A model generated the notes under the pieces. That model was not told the origin of the DNA. It did not search any database and saw nothing but the letters and a program-made list of their open reading frames with translations. From the NCBI RefSeq assembly GCF_028713855.1, contig NZ_JAQTNN010000016.1, positions 215-64,214 of the forward strand: a stretch of DNA of 64,000 nt. Reading direction: 5' to 3'. Made by a program: the position numbers and the translations under genes. This document shows positions 18,569 to 27,404 of the stretch, in pieces. Numbering within the stretch: the stretch's first letter is position 1; each line of letters opens with the position of its first letter. Origin of the DNA: Sulfuricurvum sp. GTDB lineage: Bacteria; Campylobacterota; Campylobacteria; Campylobacterales; Sulfurimonadaceae.

Positions 18569-20146
18569 ATGAATCTTTTCAATACGATCAAAGCTAAATT
18601 TATCGTCAATCTTGTGGCAGCCGTGGGCGCCATCCTCGTTAGTGTCATTGTAGCATACTTCATCGCCACCGGTTCGATCAAGACGATCATGACCAGCGAT
18701 CTCAATACCGTTGCAGACGCTTTGGAGAAAAATGTCAACTATATTGCAAAAATCGAACCCAAGGCTTATGAAGATGAAGCGTTTAAAGATGATATCAAAA
18801 GTATAAAAATCGGTAAAAGCGGTTATGTCTATTTTATCAATGCCGATGGGGTCATGACGATTCACCCAAAACCGGAGGATGAAGGAAAAAACAAAGCAGG
18901 ACATGATTATATCGACCACATTCGTGCCGACAAAGCAGGCGGTATATATGAATACGTCTCCTCCACCACCGGTCAGGACAAAATTGCGGCATATCGCTAT
19001 ATTCCGGCATGGGATATGTGGGTCATTCCCGGGATCAATAAAGGCGATTATTTTGAAGAACTCAAAGCAAGCTTTTTTAAATGGTTCCTTATTCTCGGCA
19101 GTGTACTCGCGGGAATATTAATTGCGATCAATTATTTTTCCGGTACCAGTATCCTCCGACCTATCGAAGAGCTTGATCACGTCTCTTCCGATTTGGCACA
19201 CGGAAACGGAGATTTGACCAAACGGCTCCCTATTCTCAATAAAGACGATGAGATCGGGATAGCAAGCCATTATTTAAATCAATTCATCGGAAAAATCCAA
19301 AGTACCATCAACGATACCAAACATATCACCACTTCCGCAGTACGTTCTACAGAAACGCTGCACAGCGCAGCTACCAATCTCTCGGCGCAGTCGGAAAAAA
19401 CCAATACCATCGCTCAAAATACCAATACGACGGCGGCTGAAATCGGTGTAACGCTGGAACAAAGTGTCAACATGGCAAAAAGCACCCTTGAAAATAGCCA
19501 ATCTACCGAAAAAGAGCTGGGGCATGTCCGTGAAATAGCCAATGCGATTACCCGTGAAGTCCATAAAACTACTGAAATGAGCAATGATCTCTCCGAACGT
19601 TTCGCGCAGCTTTCCAGCGATGCCGCCAGTGTCAGCGGTGTTCTCAGCATCATTTCCGATATCGCCGATCAAACCAATCTTCTCGCCCTCAACGCTGCGA
19701 TCGAAGCCGCACGTGCCGGAGAACACGGACGCGGATTTGCTGTTGTTGCCGATGAAGTACGTAAACTTGCTGAGCGAACCCAAAAAAGTTTGACCGAAAT
19801 CAACTCAACCATCTCTATCGTCATCCAATCGATTTCGGATTCTTCCGACATGATGAACTCAAACAGCGAAAACATTGAACGTCTCGCCGAACGAAGCGAA
19901 GAGATCGATGTAAAAATCAATTCGGCATCAAACGCACTGCGTTCTAATGTCGATGCAAGCCATAAAAGCGTTCAGGAAGCTGAAAATATGGCACGTAAAA
20001 TCAACGAAATCATCAGTAAAGTTTCTGAGATGTCCAATCTCTCTGAAAACAACCAATTAGAGATCAAACAAATCTCGAAAATTGCCGGCGAACTCTACAA
20101 TGCCGCCACAAACCTCAATACGCAATTGGGGCAGTTTAAGTCCTAA
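18569..20146 (+). CDS. Methyl-accepting chemotaxis protein (Cache sensor, HAMP)
   Basis: TM - [12 protein letters not shown] Cache - TM - HAMP - [40 protein letters not shown]. Confidence 0.95.
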
Positions 20147-20158
20147 AACCCTTTTCGC

Positions 20159-20395
20159 TATAATTCCTTAAAACAAAAAAGGGAGAATAGCGATGCATGC
20201 ACCGAAGGGATTTGGTAAAACCTATTTCTCTCTTGCCGCTATTCAAGCCTACGCTTCACAAATCCGGCTTATTCAAATTATCCATCAGATACTTTGGATT
20301 TGTCCAACACACCCTATTCATACCTATTCTACTGTTTCACCACCAAAAAATGTCCTTAAATCATCCCTTATTACGACTATTATTCAAGGACATTC
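20159..20395 (+). promoter_or_regulatory. Promoter (-10 TATAAT 20159-20164) and ~225-nt structured leader with SD-sequestering hairpin
   Basis: Perfect stems 20185-92/20237-44, 20258-65/20296-303 and 20349-57/20386-94 (the last covers the AAGGA SD). Confidence 0.5.
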
Positions 20396-22303
20396 ATGTT
20401 TAGACCAACCCTTTCGCTTGTCGCCTGTGCGACCCTCGTTGCCTCATTAGGGGCTAATACTCTTCAACTCGAACCGATCACCATAACTTCAAACGCTATT
20501 GAAAGCAATGAGCTTCAGGCACCGTATGCGGCTGAAATTTATACGGCGGAAGATATCAAAAAATCGCATGCACAAAATATTTATTCTTTTCTAAATGAGA
20601 ACACATCTCTTGTTACCTCATCTGGATATGGCAATTCCTTTTCCCAAAAATTGGATATTCACGGTTACGGGATAGGTGACGGTTATCAAAACATCGTTGT
20701 TACTCTCAACGGACGCCGTTTAAACAACATTGATATGACCGCGCAGTTATTAGGTTCTATTCCAGTAAACACCATTGATCGTATTGAAATTCTCAAAGGA
20801 GCCGGTTCGGCGGTTTACGGTGATGGAGCTAACGCCGCTGTTATCAATGTTATAACCAAAGAGGGCAATCACAACGAACTCGGCTTTTACAGCGGCAATT
20901 ATCATACTCTCGGACAGTCGCTTTATCTCTCCTCCTCCAAAGACCGTTTTTCCTATGCTCTTCATTTGGATCATTCCGATACAGACGGTGTTCGTGTTGT
21001 TGATACAAATAGTAATCGAGACCAACAAAAAAGTACCGACGGCGGAGGAGAGTTTTCTTATCGTCCTACTGATAAACTCGAAGTTCGTGCAGGTGCACAA
21101 TTTACCCGCAACGACTCGATTTACGGTCGTCCAATGACGCTCGCAGAGTACAAATCTAATCCGGCGCAAGAAGGTTCGGCCGGTTATGGAAGTACCCGCC
21201 AAAGTTTTAAATCCAACGTACTAAACAGTGGATTGATTTATACTCTCAATGAAAACACCTCAATCGAAGCGACAGGATCGCGGGAAATTAAGCAACTCAA
21301 CTACATTACCTATGGCAGTATTGCAAACTACCGCTACGATGAATTCCGTACTCAGATCAACTACGATTCAACTCAGTTTAAAGCAGCCACAGGGGTCAAT
21401 GGGACAAGGGGGAAACGGGAAGGATATGGCAATGAAACAAGTAAAGACAATAATGCTCTTTACGGAACAATCGAATATCATGCTGATAAGCATACTGTTT
21501 CTGCAGGCGGACGCCATGAAAAAGTATCGTATGAATATCTTGCTTCTTCAGCAGCCTCTTCCCAAAATAATTCATTAAACGGATACGAAGCGGGATACGT
21601 TTACCAGCTCTCTCCTGACCAATCCGTATTTGCCCACTATGCCCATGCCTATCAAGCTCCTGACATTGATCGTTTCTTCAACTGGGGAGGAACCTTTAAC
21701 GGATTCATTCAGCCGATGAAAAGCGATACCTATACCCTCGGCTATAATTTCATCACACCGGAAAACAAACTCAAAATATCGACCTTTTACACGAATTTGG
21801 ATAACGAAATATATTATCACGCCGCAACCTACACCAATACCAACATCGACCAATCCCACAAATACGGCATCGATATTTTTAATCAGTGGCTTATCAGTGA
21901 GCGGTTCAATATTACCGCTAATTACAACTACGTTCAAGCGATTATCGACCATGAACAAGAATCCGGTGATGACTACTCAGGGAAAAAACTTCCCGGTGTC
22001 TCCAAGCATAACGCTAAAGCGACACTGTCATATCTACCCAATACCCATACCACGTTTTCTCTAACGCAGCTTTACCGCTCATCTGCCTATGCCCAAGAAG
22101 ATTTCAGCAATAGTTTTTCTCAAAAGCAAGATGCCTACTACTCTACCAACCTCTCGGCTACCTACGCTAAAGACAATTATGAAATCTTCGCTAAAATCAA
22201 TAATCTTTTTGATCAATCAAACGGCATCTGGATCAATAACGACGAAATATATCCCGTCGATTTTACCGCAACGTTCACTGCTGGATTGAAATTTATTTTT
22301 TAG
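20396..22303 (+). CDS. TonB-dependent receptor (BtuB-like size)
   Basis: Signal peptide, plug IDRIEILKGAGSAVYGDG..VINVIT, KINNLFD, C-terminal Phe. Confidence 0.93.
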   Translation: MFRPTLSLVACATLVASLGANTLQLEPITITSNAIESNELQAPYAAEIYTAEDIKKSHAQNIYSFLNENTSLVTSSGYGNSFSQKLDIHGYGIGDGYQNIVVTLNGRRLNNIDMTAQLLGSIPVNTIDRIEILKGAGSAVYGDGANAAVINVITKEGNHNELGFYSGNYHTLGQSLYLSSSKDRFSYALHLDHSDTDGVRVVDTNSNRDQQKSTDGGGEFSYRPTDKLEVRAGAQFTRNDSIYGRPMTLAEYKSNPAQEGSAGYGSTRQSFKSNVLNSGLIYTLNENTSIEATGSREIKQLNYITYGSIANYRYDEFRTQINYDSTQFKAATGVNGTRGKREGYGNETSKDNNALYGTIEYHADKHTVSAGGRHEKVSYEYLASSAASSQNNSLNGYEAGYVYQLSPDQSVFAHYAHAYQAPDIDRFFNWGGTFNGFIQPMKSDTYTLGYNFITPENKLKISTFYTNLDNEIYYHAATYTNTNIDQSHKYGIDIFNQWLISERFNITANYNYVQAIIDHEQESGDDYSGKKLPGVSKHNAKATLSYLPNTHTTFSLTQLYRSSAYAQEDFSNSFSQKQDAYYSTNLSATYAKDNYEIFAKINNLFDQSNGIWINNDEIYPVDFTATFTAGLKFIF

Positions 22304-22309
22304 GGTCTT

Positions 22310-22870
22310 ATGAAACTTCATTTCCATCCCTATCTCCGATACAAATTTCTAAACTCCCTCTTTACCGGTATGGTGGGAGGCTCAGTGTTTACGATTTACG
22401 GATCACTCAGCCCTTCTACCTTTTCGGTAGGGGGGATTATTCTCGCCCTTGGATTGATGGGGATGGCGTACGTGTATCATCACCTGATGACGTTAAAACG
22501 TTTTTTTATCCTTTCGTTTTCAGCAGAAGCAGTGATGCTTTTGATGATTGGATACTTTCTCATTTTTCCTAAATATCAACTTACTGCGCTTATCGTTTAT
22601 GGAGCCTATCAGCTCTCATTTATATTCGGAGGCTATTTGGTACGGGCTGAAACCCATTTTGCCCGTAAAGCACGGGTTATGGGTTGGATCGATATCGCCA
22701 AACAGCAAGGCTATCTCGCTGGGCTTCTCCTCTCGTACGGATTTTACAAAGCCTTGGAACACTACGGTTCAGTCGATGCAAAAGTTCAGGTTTACGGACT
22801 TCATATTATCTTATTTCCGTTAGAACTTGCCATCATTATGTTACTGTTTGGGGCTTTTAGGGTAAAATAG
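22310..22870 (+). CDS. Small multi-TM membrane protein (half-MFS-like)
   Basis: About six hydrophobic segments in 186 aa; 6 nt after the receptor. Confidence 0.7.
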   Translation: MKLHFHPYLRYKFLNSLFTGMVGGSVFTIYGSLSPSTFSVGGIILALGLMGMAYVYHHLMTLKRFFILSFSAEAVMLLMIGYFLIFPKYQLTALIVYGAYQLSFIFGGYLVRAETHFARKARVMGWIDIAKQQGYLAGLLLSYGFYKALEHYGSVDAKVQVYGLHIILFPLELAIIMLLFGAFRVK

Positions 22871-22893: not shown

Positions 22894-24588
22894 ATGCGAA
22901 TTATTGCTTTGCTGATGGCGTGGTCGTTTCTTGCCTTCGCCTCTCCTCTTCTTCTCACCTTCAAAGGTAACGAAAAAATATCAGATAGCAACCTCTACGA
23001 CGCGTTGGGCTTGCGAAAACCCTACGCGATAGAGGTTTGGGAAGCACATCCATCTATCGAATCTGCGGCAATTTCCCAAAGTCTCTCCGCATTGACAAGT
23101 TTTTACCGATCCAAAGGGTTCTACCACGCAAAAATCACCTCTGAAACCAAAGAAAACGGGGTTGTTTTCAAAATAGAAGAAAATGATCCCATCATCATCG
23201 GTGACGTCAAAATCAACAGTCCGATAGAAGTGAACTCAGCGGTTACGCTTCATAACGATGACGTATTTGATCAGGAAAAGTTCTCTGCATCCAAAGCCGA
23301 AATTAAAAAACGCTACGCCCAAGCGGGCTATTGCAATGCAGACTTTAATTCCAAAGCGTGGGTCGATATCGAAACCAATCATGCCTATCTTCTCTTCGAA
23401 GCGACTCCCGGAGAACCCTGCACCTTCGGTGCTGTCAATGTCGAATCGACGCCGAATATCAACGGAAAACTTACTGCCTCAATGCTCCGTTTTAAAGAGG
23501 GCGATCCCTACAGTGTCGAAGCCATCCGTCAAAGTTACGAAGCCCTATATGCGCAAGAAGGGGTAACACGGGTTATTATCAACGATAACGAGCGTAACGG
23601 CAGCGTGGTCCCGATCCTGCTCAATATCGAAGAGGCCGAACTTCCGATCCGCTTTACCGCAGGGTTAGGGTACAGCAGCGATGAGGGAATTACCGCTCAA
23701 ACAGGACTCAAACACCGCAATTTTTTAGGCAATCTCAAAACTCTCTCTCTGGATGCTCGTTATTCACAGATTAAGCAAGAAGCCTCCGGAACATTTGGTC
23801 TACCGCTCGAAAACCGGGGGCTTTTAGGTGCTGAAATCGGGTATAAAAATGAGATTTTCGACGGCTATAAAACCGAAAGCACCTATGAAAAATTAACCGC
23901 TAAATACCAAGACACCCCGGGATCAGCCATGTTTGGCGTGTTGTTGGATGAGGTTCAAACCTATCAGAGCCAAGACATCACTACCTTCCCCAACAGCAAG
24001 CTATTTATCGCTTCACCCATAGGCGAACTCAACTATGATACACGGGACAAGCCGCTCAATCCGACCAAAGGGTATTGGCTAAATGCCAACCTAATGGGAT
24101 CGTTGTATACCCCAGGACTCTCGGATGCTACCTATTTTAAATCTCTCCTCTCTGCCGCATACATCACCAGCATGAATGCGCATGTATTTGGTGCCAAAGT
24201 GAAATGGGGAACCCTCCGAATCTACGACGGCTCAATTCCTTCATCCTATCGATTTTACGCAGGGGGGATGAACTCCAACCGTGCGTACACCTATCGGGAT
24301 TTAGGTTCCAAGAACAGTGACGGCGATCCAATCGGGTTTGCATCGATAACGGAGGGGACGCTAGAGTATCGATTTCCGATTTATGAAGAGTTTCGAGGGG
24401 TTTTGTTCAGTGATGTCACCTTTGCCTCCCAAAATATTCTCCCCGATTATGCTAATGACGGATATTTAGGGGTAGGGGTAGGATTCCGTTATGTTACTCC
24501 GGTCGGACCTGTCGCAATTGATTTCGGGATTAATCCCGAAGATACGGCTCAATACGCGATCCATTTTCGAATCGGAGAACTGTTTTGA
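22894..24588 (+). CDS. tamA: TamA/BamA-family outer membrane protein
   Basis: POTRA-like N-terminus, GLGYSSDEG, RFYAGGMNSNRAY, GVGFRYVTPVGPVAIDFG; followed by a TamB-like gene. Confidence 0.85.
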   Translation: MRIIALLMAWSFLAFASPLLLTFKGNEKISDSNLYDALGLRKPYAIEVWEAHPSIESAAISQSLSALTSFYRSKGFYHAKITSETKENGVVFKIEENDPIIIGDVKINSPIEVNSAVTLHNDDVFDQEKFSASKAEIKKRYAQAGYCNADFNSKAWVDIETNHAYLLFEATPGEPCTFGAVNVESTPNINGKLTASMLRFKEGDPYSVEAIRQSYEALYAQEGVTRVIINDNERNGSVVPILLNIEEAELPIRFTAGLGYSSDEGITAQTGLKHRNFLGNLKTLSLDARYSQIKQEASGTFGLPLENRGLLGAEIGYKNEIFDGYKTESTYEKLTAKYQDTPGSAMFGVLLDEVQTYQSQDITTFPNSKLFIASPIGELNYDTRDKPLNPTKGYWLNANLMGSLYTPGLSDATYFKSLLSAAYITSMNAHVFGAKVKWGTLRIYDGSIPSSYRFYAGGMNSNRAYTYRDLGSKNSDGDPIGFASITEGTLEYRFPIYEEFRGVLFSDVTFASQNILPDYANDGYLGVGVGFRYVTPVGPVAIDFGINPEDTAQYAIHFRIGELF

Positions 24589-27404
24589 AAAGGTTCCGTA
24601 CTCTCCCTTGGCTCAAGTGGCTCAAACATCTGTTTGTAACGTTTCACTTTCTCCTCTACACTATGGTGCTATTGGCTTCAGCCGCTGTGTATATCGCCTT
24701 TCGTCCGGATAGCCTCGAAATCGTTAATACCTATTTCCTCGAACCGTTCGATATACACTATTCCCGTGCCGAAGGGTCATTGCTAGAGGGATTTACTATC
24801 CATAATCTCCACAGCAAAAAAATAACGGCTAAAACTCTCATTCTCAAATACAACCTCGTAAAAATGTTAGAGGGAGAACATACGATCGACTCAGTTCATA
24901 TTGACGGATTACAGCTCCATTTGGACGACTTTTTAACCGATGACAACGCCCCGTGGCCTTTTCCGACGTTCAAACTTCGCGAAGTAGTGATCACCAATCT
25001 CCAGCTTATCAGCAGTTATCCGATCGAACTGGATATTCATGCCAAAAATGGGAACTATGATGGAAATGTGATCAATTTTGCATCATTAGATGCGACTCTC
25101 AAATCTCGCTATGCCAACGGTGCGATTCATGGAAAAGTATCTAAAAATGCCCTCGTCGGAACAGGTGATCTGTATCCGAATGCGGTCGAGCTCGCTCCCT
25201 ACAGCGAGAAATTCACAACATTGCCCCGCGTAGTTCGGCTAACTATAACCGAACTCTCCGATACCAAAGCGCTGTTACAAACCTCCATTGCGAGCCTCAC
25301 GTCCAAACAAGATGCTACCGTGAGTGCCAACACCATAGCGCTTGATTTTCGCTATCGGTATGATGATGAGTATTTTGATGTCGATGCAACCTATGTGCTT
25401 CAACGCATCCAAGATTCAATGCAAACAAAACAACATTTGCGCTATACCCTAGAGGGCAAAACGGCAACCGAATTCGACGGACTCATCACCTCGCTTCAAC
25501 CCCTTCCGGCTAATACCTTGCATGGAGAGGTTACAGATGATGCAAACGGAGTGAACGGCACAGTATCCCTCGATGGAAGTACGCTGCATCTCTCCAGCCC
25601 TGATTACGACCGTTTTACATGGGATATGGGAAGTAATCATCAAAATCTCGCTTTTATCCCTTCCCTTCCAGAATTTTTACGTGCTTCACCCTTGCAGATA
25701 AAAGCGCATGGTACCTATATCCTCAGCACCAATGCCCTTGAGGGCTCTCTTGATGCCGCGCACAAGTCTGCCCTCTTTAAAGGGAAATTTTCAACCTTAA
25801 ACGACCATCATTCTCTAAGCGGAAACCTCACACTGCCAAGCGATGCACCGCTGTGGAAAAGCTGGAAACATAAACCGCCTGAACAGCTCATGATCTCACT
25901 CAGTAACGAAGCTAATGCTACTCGCATCAACCTCTCCGGAGATTCTTTAGCCCTATCGGCTGCTCTGATTGGAGAAAACATCAAAGGTTCAGGCAACTAT
26001 ATGGGTGCTTTTTTCGATTTTCAAGGAGGGATATCCGCCAACCAAAGCACCCTTCAAATCGATACTCTTATACCCTCTTTGTTTGCCACTCTCTCCAAAC
26101 TGGAACCTATCGAACTGAATCACGGAGAATATTACGATATGGAAGTTCGGGCAAAAACGCAGGTTACATTAAACGACACTCTCCATATCCAAAGTGATCT
26201 TACCATCCCCTGGTATGCGGCAGTGCTTGATTCTCAACGCTCTTTCGGGGGAACAGACGGTCAAGTCCGTATCGAATACAATGACGGTAATATCACCATT
26301 CCCCACTACCGTCTCGAAATTGCCGGGCATGACGTGATGAGTGATAAAACTTCCCACATGCATCTAGGAGCGGATGGAAAGCTTAGTATTGATGAATTTT
26401 GGATGTACGATACGCTGCTCCTCAACGGAACAATCTCTCCCGATTTGAGTGCATCGCTGCGGCTTCGATCGGATCGTTTCAGTTATCACGGTCCTGAAGG
26501 CTCTGCCCATGCGGGAGCCGATCTCACCTTTGAACGCGATTCACAAGCCAATCAAACACTTGCGGGCTCTTTAAACATATTAGACGCTACGATCACCTAC
26601 CTGCCGCTGCAACAGCTGAAAGTTATGGACGATGATATTGTGATCATTCAAGATGTCCGTCCCCCTAGTCATATAAAACTGGCTATGAACCTCCATATAA
26701 CGGCTCAACAGCCGATCCATTATCAAACCAAAGAGCTCGATTTGCGTCTCAGTCCTGATATCACTCTCTGGAAAGACCCTACCGCTCTCATGCAAATTTT
26801 AGGGATGGTAAGTATCCCTTCCGGCACCGCTAAAACGGGCGGGAAAGAGTTCACGATCAAACCGAGCGAAATCTATTTTGGCGGTGATGTTCCCCTGAAT
26901 CCCTACCTCAATCTGACCATTGCCCATGAAGTCGATTATAAAAAAATCCTCATCTATGTTACCCACACTCTCGATTCACCGATTTTCCTATTCAGCTCCG
27001 ATCCGGTGATGACCCAAAACGATATCATGAGCTATATTCTCTTCGGTGCTCCGGCCAATACGGCAGATAACAGTACCTCCGGCGTCCGTGCCGATGCAAC
27101 AAACTTTATGTTAGGGGCAGGTCTAAAAGGACTTATCAACGGAGCGACCAAAATTCAAATCGATACGATGAATATCCTCACTACTGCCGAGGGAGGTATG
27201 GGGTTTGAAGTGGGCGCCCGGCTAAACAAAGATCTCCGCGTCCTCTATAAAAATGATACCGTTTCCAGTGTCTTGATCCAATACACAGTCAATCGATGGC
27301 TCCGTCTGGATGCCGATGTCCATGAGCTTGGACAAGGAATTAATGCCGTTTATATCAAAGATTTTAGAGACTTTCTCCCACATAATAAGCCCGTTAAAAA
27401 ATAA
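24585..27404 (+). CDS. tamB: Translocation/assembly module TamB-like protein
   Basis: N-terminal TM, 939 aa beta-rich, DUF490-like C-terminus (NPYLNL, IYVTHTLDSP, MSYILFG). Confidence 0.8.
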   Translation: MKRFRTLPWLKWLKHLFVTFHFLLYTMVLLASAAVYIAFRPDSLEIVNTYFLEPFDIHYSRAEGSLLEGFTIHNLHSKKITAKTLILKYNLVKMLEGEHTIDSVHIDGLQLHLDDFLTDDNAPWPFPTFKLREVVITNLQLISSYPIELDIHAKNGNYDGNVINFASLDATLKSRYANGAIHGKVSKNALVGTGDLYPNAVELAPYSEKFTTLPRVVRLTITELSDTKALLQTSIASLTSKQDATVSANTIALDFRYRYDDEYFDVDATYVLQRIQDSMQTKQHLRYTLEGKTATEFDGLITSLQPLPANTLHGEVTDDANGVNGTVSLDGSTLHLSSPDYDRFTWDMGSNHQNLAFIPSLPEFLRASPLQIKAHGTYILSTNALEGSLDAAHKSALFKGKFSTLNDHHSLSGNLTLPSDAPLWKSWKHKPPEQLMISLSNEANATRINLSGDSLALSAALIGENIKGSGNYMGAFFDFQGGISANQSTLQIDTLIPSLFATLSKLEPIELNHGEYYDMEVRAKTQVTLNDTLHIQSDLTIPWYAAVLDSQRSFGGTDGQVRIEYNDGNITIPHYRLEIAGHDVMSDKTSHMHLGADGKLSIDEFWMYDTLLLNGTISPDLSASLRLRSDRFSYHGPEGSAHAGADLTFERDSQANQTLAGSLNILDATITYLPLQQLKVMDDDIVIIQDVRPPSHIKLAMNLHITAQQPIHYQTKELDLRLSPDITLWKDPTALMQILGMVSIPSGTAKTGGKEFTIKPSEIYFGGDVPLNPYLNLTIAHEVDYKKILIYVTHTLDSPIFLFSSDPVMTQNDIMSYILFGAPANTADNSTSGVRADATNFMLGAGLKGLINGATKIQIDTMNILTTAEGGMGFEVGARLNKDLRVLYKNDTVSSVLIQYTVNRWLRLDADVHELGQGINAVYIKDFRDFLPHNKPVKK

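Follow-up and report, generated by a model that had tools for sequence, protein, structure and literature searches.

In a stretch of 64,000 nucleotides from Sulfuricurvum sp. (hereafter the window), the gene of a TonB-dependent receptor is preceded by a long leader, and the question that this locus raises is what in the leader controls the receptor. An earlier note on the same DNA had read it as a riboswitch, i.e., a 5′ RNA domain with an unknown or variant ligand that acts on a stem burying the receptor Shine-Dalgarno (SD) sequence, and all strings on which that reading was built are found again on rereading the sequence. We propose instead that the leader is, with good probability, a cis-acting regulatory upstream open reading frame (uORF) that encodes a leader peptide of the CutF/CruR type and holds no RNA aptamer; the sensor, if there is one, would be the nascent peptide and not the RNA.

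A protein-coding gene within the leader

The features of the leader are as follows.

Methyl-accepting chemotaxis (MCP) gene, upstream neighbour, ending at 20146
20135 to 20164, + strand: putative sigma-70-type promoter (TTTAAG, 18 nt, TATAAT at 20159-20164)
20164 to 20184, + strand: inverted repeat TTCCTT (20164-69) / AAGGGA (20179-84), joining the bases directly 3′ of the -10 box with the uORF SD
20181 to 20186, + strand: uORF SD GGGAGA, 6 nt before the ATG at 20193
20193 to 20450, + strand: leader uORF, 85 aa
20193 to 20345, + strand: conserved leader-peptide core, codons 1-51 (MHAPKGFGKTYFSLAAIQAYASQIRLIQIIHQILWICPTHPIHTYSTVSPP), pN/pS 0.21
20340 to 20345, + strand: Pro50-Pro51 codons CCA CCA, proposed pause site; Pro-Pro invariant, third positions free
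20346 to 20450, + strand: unselected uORF tail, codons 52-85 and stop, crossing the hairpin described below and overlapping the receptor gene by 55 nt out of frame
20396 to 22303, + strand: TonB-dependent receptor, 635 aa, plug and beta-barrel domains (Pfam PF07715, PF00593)

Seven orthologous receptor loci were taken from related genomes and their upstream regions compared. These regions encode one amino-acid sequence, M.AP[KR]GFGK.YFSLAAIQAYAS...SPP, with different codons, and the variation at the motif codons is synonymous. Among 49 Sulfuricurvum copies, the entropy over codons 1-51 is 0.39, 0.30, and 1.32 at codon positions 1, 2, and 3, respectively, and pN/pS is 0.21 in frame versus 1.7-1.8 in the other two frames. 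Over codons 52-67, which precede the receptor ATG, pN/pS is 0.62-0.69 in all three frames, and where the uORF overlaps the receptor gene only the receptor frame is selected (0.30 versus 1.1 in the uORF frame). Purifying selection on the leader peptide ceases at Pro50-Pro51, so that what functions is a peptide of 51 residues with SPP at its end, the other 34 codons being an unselected run-on. Shorter relatives end near the same place: in one Sulfuricurvum group (54 aa) the stop lies 3-5 codons past Pro-Pro (SPPDND-stop), and Sulfurimonas has 51-aa versions (...TLSGKPLRLKINSPPSS-stop). The sole C-terminal feature common to all length classes is [S/H/A]PP.

The invariant residues of the peptide are G6, F7, Y11, F12, L14, I17, A19, Y20, A21, S22, P41, I42, Y45, S46, S49, P50, and P51. 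The window's copy also carries C37-x2-H40-x2-H43, of which the Cys and His are not conserved among the short classes and sister lineages. No Pfam or NCBIfam family matched the peptide, and its 122 homologues in the protein collection are all annotated as hypothetical and all from Sulfuricurvum. The N-terminus plausibly resembles a weak signal peptide (e.g., FTLRAITATVNQ, with an Arg inside the hydrophobic stretch), and its motif is better conserved than is usual for signal peptides; it could serve as a weak export signal, as a contact with the tunnel or a chaperone, or as part of a ligand site. Two other identities were considered and rejected, namely a RiPP or methanobactin-like precursor (no maturase genes nearby, Cys/His unconserved, paralogue in a metE context) and a single frameshifted gene comprising uORF and receptor (the receptor's own start, SD, and signal peptide are conserved in orthologues).

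Signals for expression of this gene are kept among relatives. The TATAAT about 230 nt before the receptor ATG, which the earlier note had taken for a -10 box, recurs in 43 of 48 relatives as TA[TC]AAT, 29-44 nt 5′ of the uORF start. A G-rich SD is likewise found in relatives at the same place before the uORF. The putative -35 element TTTAAG falls within the final codons of the upstream MCP gene and is weak, which explains why a consensus promoter scanner made no call at 20135 to 20164. The arms of the inverted repeat that reaches from the -10 box into the uORF SD covary in Sulfuricurvum relatives (TTCGCCT/AGGCGAA, ATCCGC/GCGGAT, TTCACCC/GGGTGAA), with duplex energies of -8.2 kcal/mol for cognate arms, -5.3 for non-cognate, and -3.7 for shuffled ones; the window's own repeat is weak (-3.5 kcal/mol). 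If transcribed, the repeat would gate initiation on the uORF. With a canonical transcription start site, its 5′ arm sits upstream of that site, outside the mRNA.

The hairpin over the receptor start site

The tail of the uORF crosses a second structure.

20349 to 20394, + strand: SD hairpin, AATGTCCTT (20349-57), 28-nt loop, AAGGACATT (20386-94), 9 bp, MFE -8.1 kcal/mol

The receptor SD AAGGA (20386-90) lies inside the 3′ arm, 5 nt before the ATG at 20396. This 9-bp stem, already proposed in the earlier note, is present and covaries: across 35 Sulfuricurvum leaders, 91.5% of cells are paired, versus 25-53% with the partner slid by 1-3 columns, and compensatory changes occur at four pairs (15 cells), a value that was reached by none of 500 shuffles. 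Different arms are used by the 54-aa Sulfuricurvum group (AACGATTA/TAATCGTT) and by Sulfurimonas (CTTAATCTTT/AAAGATTAAG and CCTAATATATA/TATATATTAGG). For the AU-rich Sulfurimonas hairpins, RNAalifold predicted no structure because MAFFT misregisters the arms, and these hairpins were judged from arm-duplex energies together with a named structure; in the Sulfurimonas class, cognate arms reach -8.7 kcal/mol, non-cognate arms -5.4, and shuffled arms -4.5. At five loci from several Sulfuricurvum genomes, GC-rich palindromic REP-like elements of ~40-60 nt (GTCATTCCCGC...GCGGGGATGAC) are inserted in the hairpin loop, with the closing stem preserved.

The hairpin has a fixed place relative to the end of the selected peptide. 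Its 5′ arm begins 3 nt past the Pro-Pro codons in the window and 2-5 nt past them in nearly all relatives of the three short-length classes; the distance from Pro-Pro to the arm is conserved, while that from the stop codon to the arm is not. In the longer forms of the peptide described below, the anti-SD sequence often comprises the second Pro codon and the stop (CCTTGA/TCAAGG) or the His-Pro codons (CATCCT/AGGATG), and a few long-class loci lack a convincing hairpin. The stem-loop shielding the receptor ribosome-binding site thus sits where a ribosome stalled on the proline motif would melt it. No intrinsic terminator was found at the leader, so the read-out is translational. Of the motifs listed in the earlier note, only the TATAAT box and this stem are kept in relatives; of the switch that it had proposed, the promoter about 230 nt before the receptor, the long leader, and SD-sequestering translational control of the receptor are supported.

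These arrangements suggest the following mechanism. When no ribosome is on the uORF, the hairpin would hide the receptor SD. Were a ribosome to pause with its P and A sites on the Pro-Pro codons, it would cover the 5′ arm, the SD would be freed, and a second ribosome could start on the receptor gene, so that the length of the pause would set receptor output. By established ribosome dimensions, with Pro50 (20340-42) in the P site a downstream footprint of ~12-15 nt should cover the first part of the arm (20349 onward), and with Pro51 in the P site the whole arm. The pause might arise from slow peptide-bond formation or slow termination after Pro-Pro, and the conserved residues before Pro-Pro, lying in the exit tunnel, might tune it. 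We infer the pause at SPP, its modulation, and its ligand, with stalling assumed. SPP is a merely moderate EF-P-dependent motif. The logic of opening a hairpin in this way has been shown experimentally for CutF-cutO and SecM-secA.

Coupling could also be simpler. In the 85-aa class any translating ribosome crosses and unwinds the hairpin, so unregulated coupling would open it as well, and the uORF might then encode a trans-acting small protein, e.g., an exported partner of the receptor, with neither a regulated pause nor a ligand. The strong conservation of the peptide and its N-terminal motif, which is like a weak signal peptide and forms the receptor's own N-terminus in other families, would suit such a protein. 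A role as receptor partner does not fit the fact that the same peptide family precedes the cytoplasmic MetE, and selection that ends exactly at Pro-Pro with a freely varying tail length, together with a spacing to the arm that is conserved from Pro-Pro and not from the stop codon, is likewise not expected of it. The long form is also predicted to be poorly structured (AlphaFold2 pLDDT 65, pTM 0.29; no compact fold). We regard plain coupling as unlikely, though as a rival to be taken seriously, and retain the regulatory leader peptide as the preferred reading.

Downstream genes and the probable signal

If the leader peptide regulates, the genes that it precedes should point to its signal. At ~70 loci inspected, the gene that follows the leader ORF is metE or a TonB-dependent receptor only. 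Both metH and metE are present in the window's genome, where metE is preceded by its own long uORF. Elsewhere, one gene cluster reads BtuB-like receptor, uORF, metE (metE confirmed, 1001 bits), and another reads metH, cob(I)yrinic acid a,c-diamide adenosyltransferase (cobA/btuR), BtuB-like receptor, and a homologue of p186, the protein that follows the window's receptor. The four motif-bearing receptors tested all score best on the TonB-B12 model (208-292 bits versus 126-152 for the next family). The best NCBIfam match of the window's receptor is the same model, TIGR01779, at 91 bits against a cut-off of 600, and relatives with the same leader or N-terminal motif reach 208-292 bits; the window's receptor and the tested relatives all remain below the BtuB equivalog cut-off (TIGR01779 / PRK10641). 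The receptor is distantly BtuB-like and no equivalog, with TonB-B12 as the best-scoring receptor family in every case.

Together, metE and btuB are the classical B12-repressed pair and textbook targets of the cobalamin riboswitch. This riboswitch (RF00174) gave no match at E ≤ 1 in the window's genome and was found in 0 of 101 Sulfurimonadaceae genomes and 0 of 141 Campylobacterales genomes from 26 families. The multi-genome scans used stricter Infernal filters, so that absence here means not found in those searched; RF00174 was detected in 7-8 of 14 control genomes. A metE and btuB-like regulon in which no cobalamin riboswitch is found leads to cobalamin status, on the strength of gene context, as probably the signal for the leader peptide; the cobalamin idea voiced in passing in the earlier note may thus have been right as to the signal. 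The pause would then probably depend on cobalamin status, and for a B12-repressed regulon the ligand should shorten it, B12 being expected to switch the genes off, a polarity like that of CruR.

A profile search of the window's genome recovered a second, longer paralogue 44 nt upstream of metE (a weak second match, on contig C3, was spurious).

Contig C2, ~156990 to 157331, minus strand: long-form paralogue, 114 aa (locus L114), before metE

It reads MAKGFKGRYFSLQAITATV...DESPPDELDLL...CQCHCNCFFRR...TDSSPPLRLS. Long forms have 104-125 aa and combine the N-terminal motif of the short form with an acidic stretch, CHCNC, and [S/H/A]PP near the end. They occur in 95 of 121 Sulfurimonadaceae genomes, and their profile matches 147 of 301 Campylobacterota genomes from many families, with part of the matches covering the profile incompletely. 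All 736 database homologues are called hypothetical and belong to no Pfam family, and the long forms are under coding selection (pN/pS 0.14-0.30). Among 120 long-form homologues, the spacing from the Cys motif to Pro-Pro is 34 or 37 residues (32-36 in a few), 0-26 unconserved residues follow Pro-Pro, and its context is SPP in 66, HPP in 52, and APP in 2. One homologue of 109 aa mixes both forms, with the long insert and a C-terminus of the window's type (SPIHTYSTVSPP), which makes the short form of the window look derived by deletion from a longer, ancestral form; the 85-aa version has lost CHCNC, the putative sensor module, and may be simplified or differently tuned.

Two further observations concern the reach of the family. 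At eight loci in other Campylobacterales families, GF[GK][KR].YFSLAAI is the BtuB-like receptor's own N-terminus, in the signal-peptide region, from which it follows that the uORF and the receptor 5′ end share ancestry through fusion or duplication. At two loci of one genus in a further family, an 88-91-codon frame before metE has a C-terminal half of the type HCNC...CHPP, a degenerate N-terminal motif, and ATA or CTG where a canonical start is expected; this frame could be a decaying copy or use near-cognate initiation.

On this basis we tentatively suggest, as a possibility somewhat less likely than not, that the Campylobacterales B12 regulon (metE and the BtuB-like receptor with its six-helix partner) is under a nascent-peptide sensor that binds corrinoid or responds to B12 status. 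The relevant parts would be GFGK.YFSLAAI, the acidic stretch, and CHCNC one exit-tunnel length (34-37 residues) before Pro-Pro. The long leader peptide would do so while its Pro-Pro is held in the ribosome, and on binding the pause would shorten and the SD hairpin re-form. In the window, the short form would then descend from such a sensor by trimming.

The same stalling might instead report a metal ion (Cu, Zn, or Co) held by Cys and His. The long form carries CHCNC, the window's peptide has C37, H40, and H43, and MetE is a zinc enzyme. The architecture also parallels that of CutF-like proteins, next to which TonB-like genes are the second most frequent kind of neighbour (PMC9973294). Against a metal signal, the regulon is exactly the classical B12-repressed pair, the tested motif-bearing receptors fit the TonB-B12 model best and not the copper or zinc receptor models, one family has the receptor beside metH and cobA, and the Cys/His positions are unconserved among the short classes. 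A metal is, on this evidence, an improbable signal, and cobalamin status stays the preferred one.

The aptamer of the riboswitch reading would lie in the 5′ part of the leader, which encodes the peptide. The 8-bp stem that had been thought to close a 5′ domain (GAATAGCG, 20185-92 / CGCTATTC, 20237-44) is there in the window but complete in just 8 of 48 relatives, and the two alternative pairings of ACAAATCC (20258-65), with GGATTTG (20208-14) and GGATTTGT (20296-303), can also be drawn but are each complete in 1 of 48. Covariation among orthologous leaders accordingly exists for the SD stem and does not extend to these helices, which are by-products of the coding sequence; GGATTTGG encodes the conserved Gly-Phe-Gly, and the supposed glycine-aptamer-like core GGAGA..CACCGAAGG turns out to be the SD and codons 3-6 of the uORF. 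The Rfam scan that the earlier note had called for matched no known riboswitch class at gathering score: with Rfam 15 (cobalamin RF00174, glycine, Moco, NiCo, and others) the whole window yields tRNA only, 20100-20450 at E ≤ 10 gives nothing on the + strand and three chance matches on the minus strand (E ≥ 0.43), and four related leaders gave no match. Although the leader is long, folds better than its shuffles (z = -2.56), and has a genuine SD-sequestering stem at its end, an unknown-ligand aptamer that toggles this stem through the ACAAATCC pairings has next to no likelihood, as there is no Rfam match, the helices are not conserved, and conservation is of the protein type with freely varying synonymous sites, so that the comparative data already contradict it.

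The receptor itself is followed by a conserved membrane protein.

22310 to 22870, + strand: p186, conserved 186-aa six-helix membrane protein, always following the receptor

Besides Sulfuricurvum and Sulfurimonas, three other families have it behind this type of receptor, and the pairing extends to at least five families of the order, sometimes with overlapping stop and start codons. AlphaFold2 gives six helices (pLDDT 79), Foldseek a weak half-MFS-like resemblance (TMq 0.6-0.72, E > 0.02), and nothing was matched in NCBIfam or among PDB sequences. We name p186 as a candidate inner-membrane partner of the receptor or cobalamin transporter; assignment as a B12 transporter of the BtuM/ECF-S type found no support, with no PDB sequence match and only the weak half-MFS resemblance. 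The order MCP, uORF, receptor, p186, TamA is conserved in Sulfuricurvum, where the receptor is far more divergent (26-72% identity, with often only the plug alignable) than MCP (73-88%), p186 (67-89%), and TamA (59-89%), which suggests receptor replacement or diversifying selection, e.g., under pressure from phages or colicins or with a new ligand. TamA-like (Omp85 and POTRA) and TamB-like genes (22894-27404) follow the receptor-p186 pair directly on the same strand, and they stay beside it in several Sulfuricurvum genomes.

In the genomes searched, no cobalamin riboswitch was found in an order that includes Campylobacter-, Helicobacter-, Sulfurimonas-, and Sulfurovum-like bacteria, and an unannotated leader-peptide family before metE and btuB-like genes offers a directly testable answer to how these are regulated. 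Sensing by nascent peptides, as in CutF, CruR, TnaC, and SpeFL, would gain a new regulon, a new phylum, and possibly a vitamin. If the nascent-sensor reading is true, no arrest peptide that senses a vitamin would precede this one, and a protein would here fill the role of the most widespread riboswitch. The receptor with its six-helix membrane protein is a candidate new route of B12 uptake. Genome annotation misses or mislabels these ORFs, as the hypothetical homologues attest, and coding potential is worth checking in long structured leaders before they are labelled riboswitches.

Relation to known leader systems

The closest mechanistic parallel is CutF of Rhodobacter capsulatus (cutFOG, DUF2946), in which stalling of a ribosome at a C-terminal proline motif opens the stem-loop over the ribosome-binding site of the next gene (PMC9973294; bioRxiv 10.1101/2025.02.05.636593). 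Like the leader family, CutF is a small uORF with an N-terminus resembling an export signal, a Cys motif, and a C-terminal proline motif, with a stem-loop over the next ribosome-binding site and a short intergenic distance or overlapping genes. CutF has the motif PPP and precedes a multicopper oxidase, whereas the leader family has SPP or HPP, precedes a BtuB-like receptor or metE, and occurs in Campylobacterota; the Cys motif is CxxxC in CutF versus CxCxC in the long forms and is absent from the window's copy. Unlike in CutF, the signal of the leader family is probably not copper. The published rule for CutF-like proteins takes fewer than 150 aa, an N-terminal signal peptide, Pro-Pro in the last 15 residues, and a same-strand gene within 1 kb (PMC9973294). 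The window's uORF has this size and such a neighbour, and its signal peptide is plausible but weak; Pro-Pro lies within 15 residues of the end in the 51-54-aa and most long forms, and not in the window's 85-aa form. DUF2946 (Pfam PF11162) had no match at E ≤ 10 in 3 + 8 + 58 members of the leader family and none in the window's genome.

CruR of Bordetella pertussis (Bp2923, DUF2946) is the leading uORF in the operon of a TonB-dependent transporter (PMC9426467), and in both systems an inner-membrane protein gene follows the transporter. Both have a fixed spacing from the Cys motif to Pro-Pro (45 residues in CruR, 34-37 in the long forms), and for CruR, as for the long form, predictions show little structure (PMC9426467). 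CruR works through Rho-dependent termination, with a 162-bp intergenic region and no SD hairpin, whereas the leader family has an SD hairpin next to Pro-Pro; CruR has CXXC, RAPP, and a copper ligand, while the leader family has CHCNC or no Cys motif and [S/H/A]PP.

Arrest peptides that end in SP-stop and AP-stop have also been described (PMC10987492). SecM, VemP, MifM, and the NSP-stop and NAP-stop peptides (PMC10987492) share with the leader family an N-terminal targeting segment, a conserved C-terminal arrest segment ending in Pro and followed by a few unconserved residues, and a stem-loop that sequesters the SD until a stalled ribosome opens it. These peptides monitor and regulate Sec and YidC components, while the leader family would regulate a nutrient receptor and methionine synthase and was not found upstream of secA, secDF, or yidC, the context of SecM, VemP, MifM, and ApdA.

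With the cobalamin riboswitch RF00174 the leader family shares its target genes, btuB and metE, as well as SD sequestration as output, and its physiological role is probably the same; the riboswitch consists of an RNA aptamer, whereas the leader here encodes a protein. The metE gene of Mycobacterium tuberculosis is preceded by a uORF through whose translation a B12 riboswitch acts (PMC11260477), and there the sensor is still RNA, unlike in the leader-peptide reading given here. In the literature we found no paper on this family or on any cobalamin-responsive nascent peptide. The leader family would work like CutF, but it is not DUF2946 by sequence and is a new family, in a new phylum and with a new regulon.
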